From: Pseudomonadota bacterium
GTDB lineage: Bacteria > Pseudomonadota > Gammaproteobacteria > Burkholderiales > JBEEJL01
Assembly (NCBI GenBank): GCA_043744215.1
Contig: JAYTVC010000014.1
Coordinates: 16,932 to 80,931 of the forward strand
Direction: 5' to 3'
Length of the DNA stretch: 64,000 bases
Shown here: piece by piece, positions 2,055 through 50,109 of the stretch
Position numbering within the stretch: position 1 is the first letter of the stretch
Layout: every line of letters begins with the position of its first letter
Made by a program: the position numbers and the translations under genes
Notes under the pieces: model-generated
The model's input: the letters and a program-made list of their open reading frames with translations, nothing else
The model's database searches: none
Told to the model about the DNA's origin: nothing

Positions 2055-2615
2055 TCATTCACCATAAACCTCCTTCTCTTCGCCCATAGCTTCAAACTCT
2101 GATGTGCCTGCCCAATGCGAAGGATAAATTCCCCGCTCAACATATTTATGGAAGGTGGAATACGGCCAATCGGCAACCCGTGAAACATGTTTATGTTTTA
2201 CTGGATTGAAATGAAGGTAATCGGCATGGCGTTGATAATCAAGCTCGTCGCGGATTTGGTGTTCCCAAAAACGGCGCTGCCAAAACCTTGATTCATTTCT
2301 TTTGATGCGGGATTCGCTTTTGGGTGATGTAAGCTGAACGAGATGCTCGCATTGTTTGCTGACCGTGCGTTTAATCAAAGACCAGCGGATGCCGAAATTG
2401 GCATCGTCTTCGGGCAAGGTCCAAATACAGTGAAGATGATCGGGCAGTAATACCCAGGCGTCGATGATAAAAGGATGCTTTGTTCTCGCGAGGTTGATAC
2501 CTAGGCGCAATGCGTTGCGCACTTCCGCCTGAGTGAGTAAGGCTTGGCGACAGTAGGTATTGACGGTGAAAAAGTAGGTGCCGCCTTGTACCTTGGATCT
2601 GCGGTATTCAGACAT
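2055..2615 (-). CDS. REP-associated tyrosine transposase (RAYT, IS200/IS605-like Y1/HUH)
   Basis: 186-aa ORF with the HUH motif in LLPDHLHCIW and a C-terminal Tyr region YLHFNPVKH. Family A REP copies lie within ~20 nt of both gene ends. Confidence 0.85.
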   Translation of the reverse strand: MSEYRRSKVQGGTYFFTVNTYCRQALLTQAEVRNALRLGINLARTKHPFIIDAWVLLPDHLHCIWTLPEDDANFGIRWSLIKRTVSKQCEHLVQLTSPKSESRIKRNESRFWQRRFWEHQIRDELDYQRHADYLHFNPVKHKHVSRVADWPYSTFHKYVERGIYPSHWAGTSEFEAMGEEKEVYGE

Positions 2616-7044: not shown

Positions 7045-7662
7045 TTATTTCTTGTCCTTGCCGAGTAAATACACTTCGTTGCTGCGGTCGCGGGAGGCAT
7101 CGGGCTTTCGAGTGGCGATACTGGCAAATTCCTTGAGCAAAATTTTGTAATATTCATCGAAGCCTTCGCCCTGAAACGTTTTGACCAGAAATGCACCGCC
7201 CGGTTTCAAATGCTCGATGGTAAATTCAAGCGCCAGCTCGCACAGCGCCATACTGCGCGCCTGATCCGACAGCGGTATGCCACTAATATTGGGGGCCATA
7301 TCGGAAAGTACAAGGTCCACCGGCTTGCTCATGAGCAAAGTTTTTAACGCGGCCAGGCCATCGTCGCTGGCAAAATCTGCCTGTAAGAAAGTGACGCCCT
7401 GCAGTGGCGCCATATCAATCAAATCAATGGCAATCACGCGGCCATTGCCTTTCATGCGCTCGGCCGCCACCTGCGACCAGCCGCCGGGCGTAGCCCCCAG
7501 ATCGACGATCGTCATGCCGGGCTTGATCAGCTTATCGCGCGCGTCAATTTCCATCAGCTTATACGCGGCGCGGGAGCGATAGCCTTCGCGCTTGGCGCGC
7601 TGCACGAACGGGTCGTTAATATGTTCACGCATCCAGCCTTTGCTGGTTCGGGTGGGTTTCAT
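7045..7662 (-). CDS. rlmE: 23S rRNA (uridine2552-2'-O)-methyltransferase RlmE/FtsJ
   Basis: 205 aa with SAM motif [12 protein letters not shown]. It lies upstream of ftsH, as is usual. Confidence 0.93.
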
Positions 7663-7979
7663 TAATGCGCTGAAGTCGCGCGATGCACAACTGGACGAAT
7701 CTTCGGCGCAAGCTGAGGCTCAAGCTCGCGCTTAGCCATACGCAGATCATAACTACACTGCAAATTTACCCAGAACTCGGTTGTCATATCAAAATAAAGA
7801 CCGAGACGCACAGCAGTGTCCATAGTTATCGGCCTGCCGTTTTTGGTAATGTCGGTGATACGGCTCGGCGGTACATCAATATCTCGCGCCAGCTGGCTAG
7901 GCGTAATACCCATAGGCTCAAGAAAATCCTTGAGTAGAATTTCGCCCGGTACAATTTCGGGTAATAATTTTTTAGCCAT
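7662..7979 (-). CDS. higA: HigA-family antitoxin (XRE HTH)
   Basis: 105 aa. [34 protein letters not shown]...[11 protein letters not shown] matches the HigA addiction-module antidote pattern. It lies downstream of the toxin. Confidence 0.85.
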
Positions 7980-7995
7980 TATATTTCTCCATCAC

Positions 7996-8274
7996 TCAGT
8001 GATAATCCACGATTTCAACGTTATAAACGCCATCGTCTTTCCAAACAAAACACACACGCCATTGATCATTAACGCGAATACTGTGCTGACCTTTACGCTT
8101 GGATTTCAATGCTTCAAGCCGATTACCCGGCGGCACCTTCAAATCATCAAGCCGGGCGGCAGCATCAAGTTGAAGTAACTTTCGTCTAGCGACAGATTCA
8201 ATATTTTTGAAGCGCCGCACATCGACGCTATGAAATAACGCTTCGGTGTCTGGGCAGGCGAAAGATCGAATCAT
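7996..8274 (-). CDS. higB: HigB-family toxin (RelE/ParE superfamily, plasmid maintenance killer type)
   Basis: 92 aa. MIRSF...LDAAARLDDLKVPPGNRLEALKSKRKGQHSIRVNDQWRVCFVWKDDGVYNVEIVDYH is the characteristic HigB layout. Confidence 0.85.
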   Translation of the reverse strand: MIRSFACPDTEALFHSVDVRRFKNIESVARRKLLQLDAAARLDDLKVPPGNRLEALKSKRKGQHSIRVNDQWRVCFVWKDDGVYNVEIVDYH

Positions 8275-9018: not shown

Positions 9019-9045
9019 GTAACTATTTGATTTTATTCATATTTT
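9019..9045 (-). repeat. AT-rich IHF-core motif (copy b)
   Basis: Reverse complement is AAAATATGAATAAAATCAAATAGTTAC. It overlaps the stop of the greA 3' fragment. Confidence 0.7.
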
Positions 9046-9122
9046 ATGTCGATGATTTCATATTCGCGCACTCCGCCGGGTGCCTGCACTTCGGCGACGT
9101 CTCCGGGATATTTGCCAATCAG
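9033..9122 (-). pseudogene. Orphan 3' end of greA (last 29 codons + stop)
   Basis: Encodes LIGKYPGDVAEVQAPGGVREYEIIDIKYE*. It is collinear with 9579-9668 of intact greA: 9 differences in the stop-proximal 45 nt, mostly synonymous, and none in the other 45 nt. Confidence 0.85.
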
Positions 9123-9127
9123 TTTTC

Positions 9128-9193
9128 GTAGGGTGGGCACCGCCCACCGCAAGGCAGGTAATCGAGGGCTCTGGTGGGCAGTGCCCACGCTAC
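9128..9193. repeat. Inverted REP doublet, family B (GTAG + GGTGGGC/GCCCACC hairpin)
   Basis: GTAGGGTGGGCACCGCCCACC at 9128-9148 and the inverse GGTGGGCAGTGCCCACGCTAC at 9173-9193. A third copy is at 48841. Confidence 0.75.
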
Positions 9194-9244
9194 AAATTCA
9201 ACCCGTCCTGAGCAAGCTCAGTATATCAATTACGCCACCGACTT

Positions 9245-9569
9245 CCCCATCTGCGCCGACGATTATTTGCTGAAGGCGAGGGAGCCGTCCGCGAGCAATG
9301 TTTGAGCCACGCGCTGTTTCAGTTTTGAAATGAAGACGAAAGCGAGTTTTGCTCGCGGCCCTCGCCTTCAGCAAATAATCGGCGACATCAAAAACCAAAA
9401 ACAAAAAGCAGCGCGGCGGGCGTCGCCTTTTTTGGTTACTTTATTTGGCGAAGCAAAAAAGTGACTTGCCGCCGGGCAACCCCCGGCAATGTGTTGAAGA
9501 CCGCTGAAGCTCAACGCTCCGCGTCAGGTAACGGCGCAAAAAACCGCGCCGCAACCTGACCTACTAGGC
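9245..9569. repeat. Unclassified structured repeat element, copy 1
   Basis: Aligns end to end with 49217-49542. It has a long central hairpin (9255-9386), a GC hairpin plus T6 (9415-9433), and further hairpins at 9466-9489 and 9523-9560. It ends 9 nt from the greA stop. Confidence 0.7.
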
Positions 9570-9578
9570 TATATGTTT

Positions 9579-10054
9579 TCATTCATACTTCACATCAATA
9601 ATTTCATACTCGCGCACGCCGCCGGGTGCCTGCACTTCGGCGACGTCTCCGGGATATTTGCCAATCAGCGCGCGTGAAAGCGGCGAGCTGATGGAAATTT
9701 TTCCGAGTTTGATGTCGGCTTCATCTTCACCCACGATTTGGTAAGTAACATTTTCTTTGCTGCCCAAATCCTGCAGATCAATGGTCGCACCGAACACGCA
9801 CGCGCCATCGGCATCCAGTAATTTAGGGTTGATGATTTGCGCATTGCCGAGCTTGCCTTCAAGATCCTGGATGCGGCCTTCAATAAAACTTTGCCGCTCT
9901 TTCGCCGCTTCGTACTCGGCGTTTTCCGACAGATCGCCTTGCGCGCGCGCTTCCTGAATCGCGGTGATCACGCTCGGCCGCTCAACGGTTTTGAGTTTAT
10001 GCAATTCGGCTTTCATTAAATCGGCGCCGACAATGGTTAACGGAATTTTTGCCA

Positions 10055-10055
<1 letters not shown>
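9579..10055 (-). CDS. greA: Transcription elongation factor GreA
   Basis: 158 aa with the GreA coiled-coil N-terminus (GDLSENAEYEAAKE) and C-terminal domain. Its start overlaps the carB stop (TGATG). Confidence 0.95.
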
Positions 10056-26447: not shown

Positions 26448-26531
26448 CAGGATGGGCAAAGCGATAACCTGCCCATCATGATTTCAAGCGATGGGCACGT
26501 CCACGAAGTGCATGGACTTTGCCCATCCTAC
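26448..26531. repeat. Inverted REP pair, family C (GTAG + GATGGGCA...TGCCCATC)
   Basis: CAGGATGGGCAAAGCGATAACCTGCCCATC and GATGGGCACGTCC...GACTTTGCCCATCCTAC. A related copy is at 49083-49113. Confidence 0.65.
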
Positions 26532-48840: not shown

Positions 48841-49113
48841 GTAGGGTGGGCATTGCCCACCGCAAGGCCGGTAAACACGCCTGTAGAATTAATTGTCATA
48901 CAGCGGACGTTTCAGAAGACTTGTTGGGGTTTGTGCCTCACCCCAACCAACGCAAGTTTTGGTTGAAAATACATGGCCGGGGGAGCCCGGTAAGGTTTAC
49001 GACATCATCCAAACTTAAACCCATCCCCACCCTGGCCCTCCCCTTGAAAGGGAGGGACTTTCTTTCTTCGCTAATACCTATCGTAGGATGGGCAAAGCGA
49101 CAGCGTGCCCATC
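48841..49113. repeat. Cluster of REP-like repeats (families B, D, E, C)
   Basis: Family B GTAGGGTGGGCATTGCCCACC (48841-48861); family D GTTGGGGTTTGTGCCTCACCCCAAC (48923-48947, inverse copy at 61600-61624); family E (49020-49056); family C GTAGGATGGGCAAAGCGACAGCGTGCCCATC (49083-49113). Confidence 0.7.
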
Positions 49114-49165: not shown

Positions 49166-49210
49166 GCTTTTGATGTTGCTTTTGATGTTGCTTTTGATTT
49201 GCTTTTGACC
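49166..49210 (+). repeat. Tandem ~12-bp repeats (GCTTTTGATGTT x2 plus 2 degenerate units)
   Basis: Four head-to-tail units directly 5' of structured element copy 2. They are roughly the inverse complement of the CATCAAAAACCAAAATCAAAAAAGC tract at 49358-49382. Confidence 0.7.
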
Positions 49211-49216
49211 TGGCAT

Positions 49217-49542
49217 CCCCATCTGCGCCGCCGAAATTGCGCTGGGCATGCGGGAGCCGTCGGCGAGCAATGTTTGAGCCACGCGCAGATTCAGTTCTGA
49301 GATGAAGGCGAAGGCGAGTTTTGCTCGACCGCCCGCTTGCCCAGCGCCATTTCGGCGACATCAAAAACCAAAATCAAAAAAGCAGCGCAGCGGGCGTCGC
49401 CTTTTTTGGTTACTTTTTTGGCGAAGCAAAAAAGTGACTTGCCGCCGGGCAACCCCCGGCAATGTATCAAAGACCGCTGATGATCCAGGCTCCGCGTCAG
49501 GTAACGGCGCGAAAAGCCTCGCCGCAACCTGACCTACTAGGC
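49217..49542. repeat. Unclassified structured repeat element, copy 2
   Basis: Aligns with 9245-9569. Central hairpin arms at 49227-49254 and 49332-49359. It ends 15 nt from the stop of the HExxH ORF. Confidence 0.7.
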
Positions 49543-49557
49543 CGACCTTATGTTTGC

Positions 49558-50109
49558 TTACCTGGGCACGCATTGTTCAGAAAGTTTACGCAGGTCAGCC
49601 TGTCCACAAGCTGGAAACAAAACAAATAATTGCTCAAACGTAACAGCACTCAAACTACCAAACCTGCCACGAATAAGCTTTGCAGAAGAAAAGGTTCCTC
49701 CTGGAAGTGAACGAACCATATTGAGAGCTTCGAAATATGGGCCAGAAGTTGGGCTTTGAATGGGAATGTCAAAAAGCGTTTGTGCATGAATAGAAAATTC
49801 GACCGCTACACCTTCTTCAAGCCAATTCGCGTAGCCCACTATCGGATTTAATAGGTGAATAATCTCGTGTGCCATTTCATAAACCACTGTTGGCCAAAAT
49901 ACTTTGCTGTTGGGCCCGAGCTCAATAAAAGCGCCATCTAGCTCAGGCGTGTTGCGGATATGCGGTCCGTTCTCATGAAAGGCTGGCGGATAAATTTTTT
50001 TTGATAAGTCACGTTGACCAACAAGTCGCTGAGCCTCATCAAGCAATTGATTTTGTAGCTGCCAAAGGCCTTTTTGATCATGTTCTGGGATGGAGGTCGG
50101 TAAGTTCAA
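49558..50109 (-). CDS. Hypothetical HExxH zinc-metallopeptidase-like protein (peptidase MA-like motif)
   Basis: 183 aa. YEMAHEIIHLLNPIVGYANWLEEGVAVEF fits HExxH...W.EG of MA-clan-like domains. TTG start. It looks more AT-rich than its neighbours. Confidence 0.5.
   Translation of the reverse strand: MNLPTSIPEHDQKGLWQLQNQLLDEAQRLVGQRDLSKKIYPPAFHENGPHIRNTPELDGAFIELGPNSKVFWPTVVYEMAHEIIHLLNPIVGYANWLEEGVAVEFSIHAQTLFDIPIQSPTSGPYFEALNMVRSLPGGTFSSAKLIRGRFGSLSAVTFEQLFVLFPACGQADLRKLSEQCVPR

Follow-up and report, generated by a model that had tools for sequence, protein, structure and literature searches.

Why would a repeated element keep most of its sequence and let the two arms of its longest hairpin change together? 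The question is raised by a 325-bp element that lies twice in the window (the whole stretch of DNA analyzed, 64,000 nt), at 9245-9569 and 49217-49542. A sequence-only reading of this stretch had reported a full-length alignment of the two copies in one orientation, which our own alignment reproduced, and had proposed that a structure kept under sequence variation marks a functional folded RNA or a folded single-stranded DNA (ssDNA) site. The family context of the element, the head-to-head pairing of its copies, the DNA-type loops, the duplication at greA and the RAYT gene had been missed in that reading.

The two window copies and their surroundings

A common architecture is shared by all copies, including those of the family described below. 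It comprises an outer stem P1, a long and fast-evolving helix P2 (the hairpin arms of the sequence-only reading), a helix P3, a conserved apical motif and a near-invariant 3' module with P4 and P5. The core unit has five helices in ~250 nt, and units range from about 250 to 330 nt. The features in the window are as follows.

2055-2615: RAYT gene, flanked by five REPs, 6.6 kb from copy 1.
9023-9122: second, displaced copy of the 3' end of greA, with its final 30 codons, the stop and ~10 nt, a direct repeat.
9128-9193: REP doublet (GTAGGGTGGGCA.. on the plus strand, GTAGCGTGGGCA.. on the minus strand), left end of the greA insert.
9245-9256, plus strand: copy 1, 5' strand of P1 (CCC..CUGCGC), paired with 9411-9420 in the MFE fold.
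9257-9282, plus strand: copy 1, 5' arm of P2, an inverted repeat of 26 nt, 96% complementary, with 10 compensatory differences from copy 2.
9283-9288, plus strand: copy 1, one-sided 5' bulge AGCCGT at the P2/P3 junction, from duplex predictions per copy.
9289-9358, plus strand: copy 1, P3 (CCGCGAGCAA/TTGCTCGCGG) around the apical region, from near-invariant alignment columns.
9299-9306 and 9342-9348, plus strand: apical family-wide motifs TGTTTGAG and GCGAGTT, respectively, on either side of an optional hairpin.
9359-9384, plus strand: copy 1, 3' arm of P2, inverted repeat with compensatory differences.
9387-9420, plus strand: copy 1, A-rich linker followed by the 3' strand of P1 (GCGCGG C GGG, 9411-9420), from the copy alignment and the MFE fold.
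9422-9487, plus strand: copy 1, near-invariant 3' module with T-run, P4 and P5, from 20-mer matches and BLAST.
9434-9465, plus strand: copy 1, P4 (GGTTAC..GTGAC) with the loop GCGAAGC at 9448-9454, from covariation columns.
9471-9487, plus strand: copy 1, P5 (GCCGGG CAACC CCCGGC), from the MFE fold.
9488-9569, plus strand: copy 1, 3' extension found in the window subfamily only, ending in a hairpin (9523-9560) and then CTAC (9561-9564).
49166-49201, plus strand: three tandem 12-mers GCTTTTGATGTT immediately 5' of copy 2.
49217-49542, plus strand: copy 2, same architecture, with P2 arms at 49229-49254 and 49332-49357 and the module at ~49396-49460.

Without the arms, the two window copies are identical at 248 of 271 positions (91.5%); identity is 0.92 in the remainder of the element versus 0.50 in P2. 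Within the arm boundaries of the sequence-only reading, 26 of 28 positions are paired in copy 1 and 25 of 28 in copy 2. Our recount agrees with the 12 differences per arm, 10 of them pairing-preserving, that had been reported: 12 of 28 positions differ between the copies, 11 of these have changed on both sides, and 10 of the 11 are paired in both copies. The arm sequences were found nowhere else in the 64-kb window with up to three mismatches. Both copies fold far better than shuffled sequences, with z values of -7.3 and -5.0 for the RNA fold and -6.5 for the DNA fold. The GC hairpin with T6 noted earlier was picked up by a terminator scan (9413-9427 plus tail), and the two hairpins described downstream of it are present in the MFE fold at 9471-9487 and 9523-9560.

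The last of these hairpins, together with its CTAC, is a GTAG-headed REP-like hairpin when read on the minus strand, and GTAGGTCAGGTTGCGGCG occurs only at 9547-9564 and 49520-49537. The A-rich linker is also a trait of the window subfamily; in other subfamilies GAGCAxCGCAGGGAAC and a small hairpin are found in its place. The tandem 12-mers ahead of copy 2 repeat TTTTGA(T/C), which stands 5' of P1 in many members of the family; they are also complementary to GCGACATCAAAA (position 49355).

As had been read from the sequence, both copies end close to the stop codon of a minus-strand gene, copy 1 at 9 nt from that of greA (ORF 9579-10055) and copy 2 at 15 nt from that of the HExxH ORF (49558-50109). 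The ORFs flanking the two copies include greA, carB, a yhbY-like gene, ilvD and others. Terminal inverted repeats were not found in the window copies (8 of 30 terminal matches), nor was any flanking repeat of 2-11 bp. The REP TTTTNGTAGGGTGGGCA, which had been said to precede both copies, does lie upstream of them, at 9123 and 48836, but is adjacent to neither (105 and ~365 nt away).

At greA, an insertion has taken place. The 3' end of the gene is present twice (9023-9122 and 9569-9668) as a 100-nt direct repeat with 89% identity, in which every mismatch falls within the 50 nt next to the stop and the remaining 50 nt are identical. The repeats bracket a 446-bp insert, 9123-9568, consisting of the REP doublet, 45 nt and copy 1, and this insert matches the stretch bracketed by GTAG (9128) and CTAC (9564) to within 5 nt. 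Relatives of greA are found without the insert. Copy 1 is thereby flanked by an att-like repeat of the 3' end of its target gene with an identical core. Flanking duplications are absent from 66 other copies and are therefore not a trait of the family.

Distribution of the family and covariation of its fold

The window copies are solo members of a large dispersed-repeat family of Betaproteobacteria. A 20-mer from the 3' module is matched exactly at at least 109 loci, with hosts that include Polaromonas, Thiobacillus, Gallionellaceae, Sulfuriferula, Methylophilaceae and others; among the matches listed, 140 copies of the module were counted in 99 loci. Since more than 100 loci of its family were retrieved, the earlier description of the element as two-copy holds for the window only. 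BLAST homology of the window element to all of the loci is confined to the stretch of the 3' module. Diverged relatives were observed at at least 406 places in 22 records, in replicons of Caballeronia, Burkholderia, Paraburkholderia and Ralstonia, and six of these records, including Paraburkholderia, hold at least 40 pieces each. Contig ends often coincide with family copies. Metagenome scans with GAGCAATGTTTGAGCCACGCGC and GCCGCCGGGCAACCCCCGGCAATGT returned no further copies of the window's own subfamily; there was no match in a phage collection, and one match to the module 20-mer in IMG/VR.

No description of the family was found in the literature by keywords and sequence strings. Neither the window nor 16 loci gave a match in Rfam 15 at the gathering score, and searches at E ≤ 10 and E ≤ 1 gave chance miRNA matches or nothing. 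The Rfam search that had been recommended thus matched the element to no known RNA family, and the earlier failure to place it in a known RNA class is borne out by this result and by the lack of an RT gene near the copies. Retrons, group II introns, bridge RNAs, omega-RNAs, 6S RNA and similar candidates were rejected on the lack of an Rfam match and of an associated ORF.

One strand of each unit, the plus strand, is selected to fold into fixed helices. In a MAFFT alignment of 71 copies, made from sequence only and without structure fitting, 88% of the cells are paired, versus 75% in a shuffled control and 37-53% in slid controls. Double-change cells number 406 (158 in the shuffled and 72-122 in the slid controls), the covariation score is 0.297 (0.10 in shuffles, 0.05-0.07 in slid controls), and none of 500 shuffles reaches any of five measures. 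Several pair types are seen in each of P1, P2, P3 and inner P4. The homologous columns of P1 (98-105/354-360, helix 1) covary over the 71 copies, and P3 columns 139-140/221-222 switch between GC and CG; a G-C pair at columns 157/206 is retained in 70 of 71 copies, and on the plus strand of P4 a G.U is retained in 66 and a U.G in 65 of the 71. The arms pair best with their own partner, at -60.8 kcal/mol versus -42.9 kcal/mol with the 3' arms of other copies. Mean identity in P2 is 0.82, with a minimum of 0.46, where the remainder is at 0.90-0.95. Duplex predictions for 63 copies place a bulge of 4-6 nt at the P2/P3 junction in every subfamily. When applied to the raw MAFFT alignment, RNAalifold returned one short helix overlapping P5, without covariation, and it was replaced by a majority vote of per-sequence folds and explicit pair counting. 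The arm differences in the additional copies are thus compensated, and the proposal of a functional folded RNA or ssDNA site is supported by covariation at the level of the family.

The same double changes could in principle be made without structural selection, by self-repair of the palindrome through template switching in the hairpin. Self-repair would, however, erase bulges and mismatches, whereas the one-sided bulge, the fixed G.T pairs and A.G pairs are conserved across subfamilies. P1, a short helix whose strands lie 250 columns apart, covaries as well, and the strand asymmetry in loops and folding energy described below is unexpected from a double-strand process. Even with the rarity of single-sided intermediates relative to double changes, the near-perfect arms of many copies (up to 35 consecutive pairs) and the position of P2 as the fastest-evolving part in its favor, we regard this as the least probable of the explanations considered here. 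Whether the arms are recent inverted duplications in each copy, a possibility raised in the sequence-only reading, is answered only in part, because single-sided intermediates are rare; the conserved bulges and the fixed G.T pairs oppose it.

Arms that act as guides or derive from their targets were rejected. A 6-7-mer shared with the last codons of the neighboring gene was seen by eye, with an estimated chance expectation of ~0.1-0.5 per copy; there was no other match in the window, and copies with identical arms lie in unrelated flanks. DGR-type diversification was also rejected, as the arm differences are not A-specific.

Folding strand, paired copies and mobility

Three observations identify the plus strand as the folding strand. 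With RNA parameters its MFE is the lower one in 55 of 63 copies; G.T pairs occupy fixed positions in P4; and G.T is more frequent than A.C (58 vs 31 in the 5' domain, 142 vs 19 in the module). With DNA parameters the two strands of a window copy are about equal (-69.1 vs -68.5 kcal/mol). The heptamer GCGNAGC occurs 96 times on the plus and 10 times on the minus strand, versus 7.7 in shuffles, and C-GNA-G triloop hairpins number 55 and 6, respectively; in the window copies GCGAAGC is found in P4 only. The d(GCGNAGC) hairpin is much stabler than its RNA counterpart and is a mark of ssDNA sites, among them the G4 origin, ssiA and the N4 promoters (PMC13037366), and GCGNAGC loops are also present in enterobacterial RAYT-REPs (PMC2817692, Table 1). 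The folded form is most likely ssDNA rather than RNA.

A multi-copy structured noncoding RNA is possible, though we doubt it; the plus strand would then be transcribed, and its fold (P1-P5 and the apical G.A motif) would serve, for instance, as an sRNA or for protein binding. No promoter match was found ahead of either window copy, several copies of the G subfamily (e.g., L098 and L104) have a hairpin and a T-rich tract just 5', the upstream neighbor genes are divergent in 38 cases and co-oriented in 36, head-to-head inverted pairs dominate (see below), GNA-type triloops are weak in RNA, Rfam gives no match at any threshold and there are dozens of copies per replicon. Such an RNA would nevertheless be in keeping with the strong covariation and its several pair types per position, with the G.U and U.G pairs of P4 conserved on one strand and the excess of G.T over A.C, and with the energy difference between strands under RNA parameters. 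P1 and the T-run also resemble an intrinsic terminator (9413-9433), and the apical loop of the window copy contains C-GAAA-G, which is of the GNRA type. An RNA would be as likely as ssDNA to show G.U pairs, tandem G.A and covariation.

The usual complete form of the family is a head-to-head inverted pair. A head-to-head partner is present for 55 of 84 testable copies (~65%), and adjacent copies form 30 head-to-head pairs versus 3 direct pairs. Most head-to-head pairs have no ORF inside. Ten of the 30 are spaced 1.0-1.65 kb apart, and in 12 pairs of this spacing that were inspected one substantial ORF is enclosed, different in each pair and almost never with a Pfam family. Homologues of one such cargo were found elsewhere, one of them in an apparent cassette array with GCCTAAC-type sites; in four other contexts its homologues are without the family element. 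The head-to-head form is also compatible with a double-strand cut-and-paste MITE.

The enclosed ORFs and the homologue in the array, along with ssDNA-type hairpins whose structure is kept and whose sequence is free, are what a structure-specific recombination site bracketing gene cassettes would show, that is, an analogue of attC with a different architecture and its own recombinase. We consider such a site very unlikely, since the R''/R' box pair is present in 0 of 63 copies, the cargo-flanking copies are inverted and not direct, the cargo homologues in four other contexts have no element, no integrase recurs near the copies and most pairs lack an ORF. That the sequence-only reading could not match the element to an attC site agrees with the lack of these boxes in the 63 copies and in the window copies. 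It is quite unlikely, as well, that the head-to-head pairs constitute a new structure-specific ssDNA site with its own, widely conserved enzyme that captures or carries single accessory genes. Betaproteobacteria would then have a second cassette system, independent of integrons, in which P2 might serve as an identity tag against cross-reaction of halves or copies.

Family copies have dispersed into unrelated contexts: copies with the same P2 arms have unrelated flanks in 20 of 42 pairs. No recurrent ORF, including transposase, RT, integrase, tnpA and tnpB, was detected near the copies in 8-kb loci. With the RAYT gene and its REPs, a system that works on ssDNA hairpins is present in the window. 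The REPs around this gene are GTAGGGTGCGCTTGCGCACC and not the 325-bp element, and no RAYT gene lies within the 109 loci listed (of at least 109). REP hairpins stand directly ahead of several family copies; of 63 copies, 11 have a GTAG-headed hairpin upstream and 3 have one downstream, and REP brackets were rejected as a general trait of the family. At 48 loci, orientation by a GC-skew proxy was split 19 to 29 (binomial p 0.19), if anything opposite to the IS200/IS605 direction.

The 3' module points toward the 3' end of a convergent gene in 66 cases and toward a gene start in 33, at a median distance of ~90 nt, and does so in both window copies. This orientation would suit a BIME-like element that serves the host as a bidirectional terminator, mRNA 3'-end stabilizer or protein site and is kept for that role and not for its own spread, as would the terminator-like sites on both strands (9413-9433 on the plus strand; 9479-9466 plus tail on the minus strand, with the same minus-strand site in copy 2). 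A terminator, however, needs no apical motif, one-sided bulge, fixed G.T pairs or 20-mer invariant across orders, the minus-strand hairpins are weak terminators with a 5-bp stem and an offset T-run, and orthologous greA loci do without the element. A host-serving role is thus rather unlikely. Intergenic repeats build up after gene ends because insertions there do least harm.

The best explanation, which in our estimate stands an even chance of being correct, is a non-autonomous REP/BIME/MITE-like mobile repeat of Betaproteobacteria whose plus strand is folded as ssDNA and moved in trans, with P2 as a spacer. A structure-specific enzyme acting in trans would copy or move the element and would recognize the folded strand at the conserved apical motif and the 3' module; P3 bears a conserved apical mini-hairpin flanked by G.A. 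Pairing alone would matter in P2, as a spacer helix; its arms could therefore diverge fast and together, and the rest of the element would remain unchanged. Our leading guess for the enzyme is a Y1/HUH protein such as RAYT or an IS200-like TnpA. As a side effect, the module may give hairpin and T-run signals to converging genes, here greA and the HExxH ORF.

If undescribed, as Rfam and the literature suggest, this would be among the larger structured repeat families of Betaproteobacteria, with dozens of copies per replicon, and one that breaks MAG assemblies. A fold conserved across orders with one free helix is a test case for selfish DNA read as a folded single strand, and a search for the mobilizing enzyme would have a concrete substrate in the family. 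Many spurious 'hypothetical proteins' annotated over these repeats would be explained, small orphan genes between inverted repeats could be explained too, and a covariance model would mask several percent of the intergenic DNA in these genomes.

Comparison with known systems

The family resembles REP, REPIN and BIME sequences with their RAYT (TnpA-REP, Y1 HUH), which likewise are high-copy and extragenic, form one-strand hairpins and inverted pairs, and lie after gene ends. GCGNAGC loops are shared with enterobacterial REPs, and compensatory evolution of the stem with REPINs. A REP, however, is a palindrome of 20-40 nt, whereas the family unit has about 250-330 nt, five helices and conserved internal loops. 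The GTAG/GTGG head of REPs is missing from the family core, and the window subfamily ends in a minus-strand GTAG-headed hairpin. A REP needs a RAYT flanked by the same repeat, whereas that of the window has another REP type on its flanks. REPs are species-specific, and the 3' module of the family is nearly identical across orders.

In MITEs and mobile insertion cassettes (Correia, ERIC, RUP, MIC231) and foldback elements, copies are likewise non-autonomous, numerous and intergenic, the complete form has long inverted arms and sometimes a passenger gene, and assemblies are broken as well. The family differs in that each of its arms has its own covarying, strand-specific fold and in that no transposase-bearing parent IS was detected near its copies in 8-kb loci.

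Hairpins with free sequence and conserved structure, of the ssDNA type, are a hallmark of attC sites. Integron attC sites act, as the family would, as a folded single strand with a free stem sequence and a fixed structure; both have conserved unpaired features, and both adjoin single promoterless-looking ORFs of obscure function. The R'' (RYYYAAC) and R' (GTTRRRY) boxes of attC are found in none of the 63 family copies and in neither window copy; the family element is also two to four times larger, its ORF-flanking copies are inverted and not direct, no IntI was seen and most copies are without cargo.

The ends of IS200/IS605 elements and PATEs would share with the family the strand-specific recognition of subterminal hairpins on a single strand. 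They have no terminal inverted repeats or target duplication, and neither was found at the window copies. The left motif of IS608 or ISDra2 is TTAC or TTGAT, and TTTTGA(T/C) is found on the left flank in the family. The family is more elaborate, its paired copies are inverted rather than forming two ends on one strand, a GC-skew proxy at 48 loci gave no significant lagging-strand bias (19 vs 29) and no tnpA or tnpB lies near its copies. Finally, the G4-type origin, ssiA of RSF1010, the N4 virion-RNAP promoters and plasmid Frpo likewise have GNA-loop mini-hairpins within larger ssDNA folds that are read by proteins, with structure over sequence. These signals occur once or twice per replicon and are tied to replication or transfer, whereas the family is chromosomal and present in dozens of copies.

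Window copies and anatomy of the family

The two copies of the element, copy 1 (9245-9569, + strand) and copy 2 (49217-49542, + strand), could be aligned over their full length and in the same orientation, as described in the sequence-only reading, with 91.5% identity outside the arms of the long hairpin (248/271 aligned columns). The 12 differing positions per arm were also recovered; both sides changed at 11 of them, and each copy has a pair at 10 of the 11. With the arms delimited as in that reading, 26 of 28 pairs form in copy 1 and 25 of 28 in copy 2, and neither arm sequence occurs a second time in the window. Compared to shuffled sequence, both copies were much more stable when folded as RNA (z -7.3 and -5.0), and DNA folding gave a z of -6.5. 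The hairpins and the T6 run downstream of the long hairpin are as listed, and the copies end 9 nt from the greA stop codon (copy 1) and 15 nt from that of the HExxH ORF (copy 2). The REP motif TTTTNGTAGGGTGGGCA, reported to precede both copies, does lie upstream of each, but at distances of 105 and about 365 nt. The description as a two-copy element had to be abandoned, since both belong to a large family: when one genome per species was searched for the exact 20-mer GTGACTTGCCGCCGGGCAAC, at least 109 loci were retrieved. The observation itself and its cautious interpretation, a functional folded RNA or a folded single-stranded DNA site, stand. The family copies share the following parts on the + strand.

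Parts of the element, + strand, 5' to 3'
T-rich lead: 5' of P1, often TTTTGA(C/T)
P1: outer stem, GC-rich
P2: the long stem noticed first, 10 to 35 bp, sequence different in almost every lineage
Bulge: 4-6 nt between P2 and P3, 5' side only
P3: stem of subfamily-specific sequence, always pairing
Apical motif: TGTYTGA-G[optional hairpin]C-GAGTT, kept in nearly all copies, then the return strands
P4 of the 3' module: GGTTAC...GTGAC, loop usually GCGAAGC, nearly invariant
P5 of the 3' module: GCCGGG CAACC CCCGGC, nearly invariant

The P3 strands are CCGCGAGCAA/TTGCTCGCGG in the window, GGGCTGAAAC/GTTTCAGACCC in Polaromonas and GCGGCAAAG/CTTTGCCGC in Thiobacillus. Two classes of copies were distinguished, one with an internal loop next to P1 carrying GAGCAGCGCAG on both strands, and one, including the window copies, where this part is fully paired and prolongs P2. 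An A-rich linker (9387-9410) and an 80-nt 3' extension (9488-9569) are peculiar to the window subfamily. Some family copies have extra hairpins in the P4 loop or before P4, and the surroundings of P4 vary at L009 4827-5079, L033 2612-2864, L041 1923-2175, L094 3671-3923 and L100 2070-2322; in the last, everything 5' of the P4 loop is replaced by unrelated sequence, possibly as a result of an IS insertion.

Hosts among the 20-mer matches listed were Polaromonas, Thiobacillus, Thiobacillaceae, Sideroxyarcus, Gallionella, Sulfuriferula, Methylophilaceae, Hydrogenophilales, Usitatibacteraceae, Imbroritus and Burkholderiaceae MAGs, as well as one gammaproteobacterial MAG, and many matches lie at contig ends. 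The loci listed contain 140 module copies in 99 loci. BLAST of the window element against plasmids gave matches confined to 9425-9473, in Caballeronia, Burkholderia and Diaphorobacter replicons, at up to 13 places per record. One such plasmid locus (L002) is organised alike: its long hairpin is unrelated in sequence, but the module after it is shared. Used as query, this relative matched at least 406 places in 22 records, with at least 40 places in each of six Paraburkholderia records. No Rfam family matched the window copies or 16 further loci at gathering or permissive thresholds, and literature searches by keyword or sequence string found no description of the family. At many loci (e.g. L073, L104, L098, L049) the repeats are crossed by long spurious ORFs, in which peptides such as ..KVTCRRATPG.. 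and ..ATLKQSSP.. recur. These ORFs cause unrelated proteins to be joined in clustering and are a probable source of database entries annotated as 'hypothetical protein'.

Around copy 2, three tandem 12-mers GCTTTTGATGTT (49166-49201) lie directly 5' of the element; they are complementary to GCGACATCAAAA after the copy 2 hairpin and repeat the TTTTGA(T/C) motif that many family copies have on their 5' side. Small palindromic repeats of other kinds (GTTGGGGTTTGTGCCTCACCCCAAC; CCCTCCCCTTGAAAGGGAGGG) form a patchwork at 48900-49060, within the 800 nt of intergenic sequence preceding copy 2; these kinds, together with GTTCGACAAGCTCACCACGAACGG, recur beside family copies in other genomes. The adjoining HExxH ORF (49558-50109, - strand, 183 aa) has no Pfam family, and its exact sequence was matched on only one public contig, of 910 bp (L001).

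Selection on the fold and divergence of P2

In order to count pairs, 71 copies were aligned with MAFFT blind to structure, and the consensus was taken as the majority of single-sequence folds.

Pairing in the family alignment; since the consensus structure was drawn from the same sequences, the contrast with slid partners comes out too favourably
Cells paired: observed 88.3%; shuffled partners 75.2%; slid partners 37-53%
Double-change cells: observed 406; shuffled partners 158; slid partners 72-122
Covariation score: observed 0.297; shuffled partners 0.10; slid partners 0.05-0.07

For none of five pairing measures was the observed value attained in 500 shuffles, a control that ignores the relatedness of the copies. 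Up to four Watson-Crick pair types occur at one position, as in columns 127/227 (GC 17, AU 14, UA 12, CG 7). An alignment-free check gave a mean of -60.8 kcal/mol for the 5' side with its own 3' side and -42.9 with the 3' sides of other copies. Because the effect is large and spread over P1, P2, P3 and inner P4, there is little doubt that the family fold is under selection; a self-templated palindrome maintained without selection is the least probable explanation considered here.

P2 identity has a mean of 82% and a minimum of 46% in copy pairs that are 90-95% identical elsewhere, and the window pair (92% in the rest, 50% in P2) is at the low end of the range but not alone. In 20 of 42 comparisons between copies with the same arms, the flanks are unrelated; the arms are therefore passed on with a spreading copy and are not rewritten from the target. 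P2 is most simply read as a spacer helix held only to pairing, the other parts being read by sequence.

Pairs, cargo and the insertion at greA

A head-to-head inverted partner was found within 2 kb for 55 of the 84 copies having enough 5'-side sequence, while direct and tail-to-tail neighbours are rare (3 each). The window copies are solo halves. Spacings fall into two groups, 130-560 bp and 1.0-1.65 kb, with one pair between them at 717 bp. In Polaromonas the two halves are distinct subtypes that always occur together, and the pair is thus the unit copied. All 12 inspected pairs of the longer group enclose one substantial ORF (L104 4574-5881, L098 6396-7751, L049, L059, L090, L107, L092, L110, L101, L057, L070 and L056). 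These ORFs, of 133-457 aa and in either orientation, are all different and encode mostly secreted, membrane or Pfam-less proteins; nearly all lack a Pfam family, and one is a HEPN_RiboL-PSP protein. Such varied cargo would suit an attC-like cassette site, which we regard as very unlikely; the cargo of L107 has widespread homologues, in four other contexts without any family element, so that movement of cargo by the elements is conjectural. One homologue (L121/L122 990-5200) lies in a run of small, unrelated same-strand genes (AHSA1, GFA, DUF2867, Cupin_2, TMEM175) with GCCTAAC-type sites between them, which looks like an integron cassette array. At L098 the stop codon of the cargo and the head of a REP-like hairpin overlap.

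In 66 cases, both window copies included, the gene next to the 3' module is convergent and turns its 3' end to it, vs 33 cases with a gene start in that place. This arrangement would suit a host-serving terminator or binding element, an unlikely reading in our view. No recurring protein family was found near the copies.

At copy 1, the 3' end of greA is present as a 100-nt direct repeat (9023-9122 and 9569-9668) bracketing a 446-bp insert, in which a REP doublet is followed by 45 nt and copy 1. The two repeats show 11 differences, all within the 50 nt proximal to the stop codon; the remaining 50 nt are identical. The insert is absent from relatives with 84-85% identical DNA (89-92% identical GreA), where homology ends about 13 nt past the stop codon. 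Such a pattern would result if the chromosome had undergone a single crossover with a small circle bearing the insert and a foreign greA end. As no similar flanking repeat was found at other family copies, this is a one-off event and not the insertion mode of the family. Within 5 nt, the insert matches a stretch from a GTAG-headed REP (9128) to CTAC (9564) after the last hairpin, and a RAYT gene lies 6.6 kb away.

RAYT gene and REPs in the window
2055-2615, - strand: RAYT gene, 186 aa, 48% identical to E. coli RayT (E 4e-48)
1327-1346, 1387-1406, 1959-1978, 2019-2038, 2633-2652: five GTAGGGTGCGCTTGCGCACC REPs flanking RAYT, as two inverted doublets and one single
9128-9193, 48841-48862, 49083-49113, 26520-26531: second REP type, GTAGGGTGGGCA..GCCCAC; inverted doublet (REPIN-like) at 9128-9193

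Given the GTAG...CTAC bracket and the nearby RAYT, a single-strand route of the HUH type is attractive for this genome. GTAG brackets are, however, no general trait of the family, and the REP flanking RAYT is of a different type. Between the rlmE-like and yhbY-like genes (7662-8274, - strand), two small ORFs in overlapping context, of 92 and 105 aa, look from their sequences like a HigB/RelE-type toxin and an HTH antitoxin; in the greA relatives, the corresponding region holds different small genes (DUF559).

Folding strand and nature of the active form

P4 has wobble pairs on the + strand, a G.U kept in 66 and a U.G in 65 of the 71 copies; the opposite strand would have A.C mismatches there. 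G.T exceeds A.C in the 5' domain (58 vs 31) and in the module (142 vs 19), and the free energy is lower for the + strand in 55 of 63 copies. The evidence thus identifies the + strand as the folding strand. For the GCGNAGC heptamer, counts in 63 copies were 96 (+ strand) and 10 (minus strand), compared with 7.7 in shuffles. C-GNA-G triloop hairpins with a stem of 3 bp or more were also mostly on the + strand (55 vs 6); they are found as the P4 loop, as the minimal apical loop (TGA-GCG[A/C/T]AGC-GAGTT) and as small side hairpins. A recent review (PMC13037366) describes d(GCGNAGC) as a DNA mini-hairpin of extraordinary stability, much weaker as RNA, which marks single-stranded DNA signals including the G4 origin, ssiA and N4 promoters. 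No promoter-like site was found before the copies, their upstream neighbours are divergent as often as co-oriented, and several copies have a hairpin and a T-rich tract immediately 5'. On these grounds we favour single-stranded DNA as the active fold. With DNA parameters, the window copy gives equal energies for the two strands, and the pairing arguments would all fit RNA equally well. A multi-copy structured RNA is a possible, if doubtful, alternative.

Compared with REP proper, attC, Rfam families and retrons, the family fell within none of them. The element is best placed with the extragenic palindromic or mosaic repeats (REP/REPIN/BIME, MITE), as a novel form of these, and we see about an even chance for this reading with single-stranded DNA as the active form. 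It is non-autonomous and dispersed, usually as a head-to-head pair, each arm of which is kept to a strand-specific multi-helix fold. The enterobacterial REPs listed with RAYT transposases carry the same AAGCGnAGCGC loops as the family (PMC2817692, Table 1).
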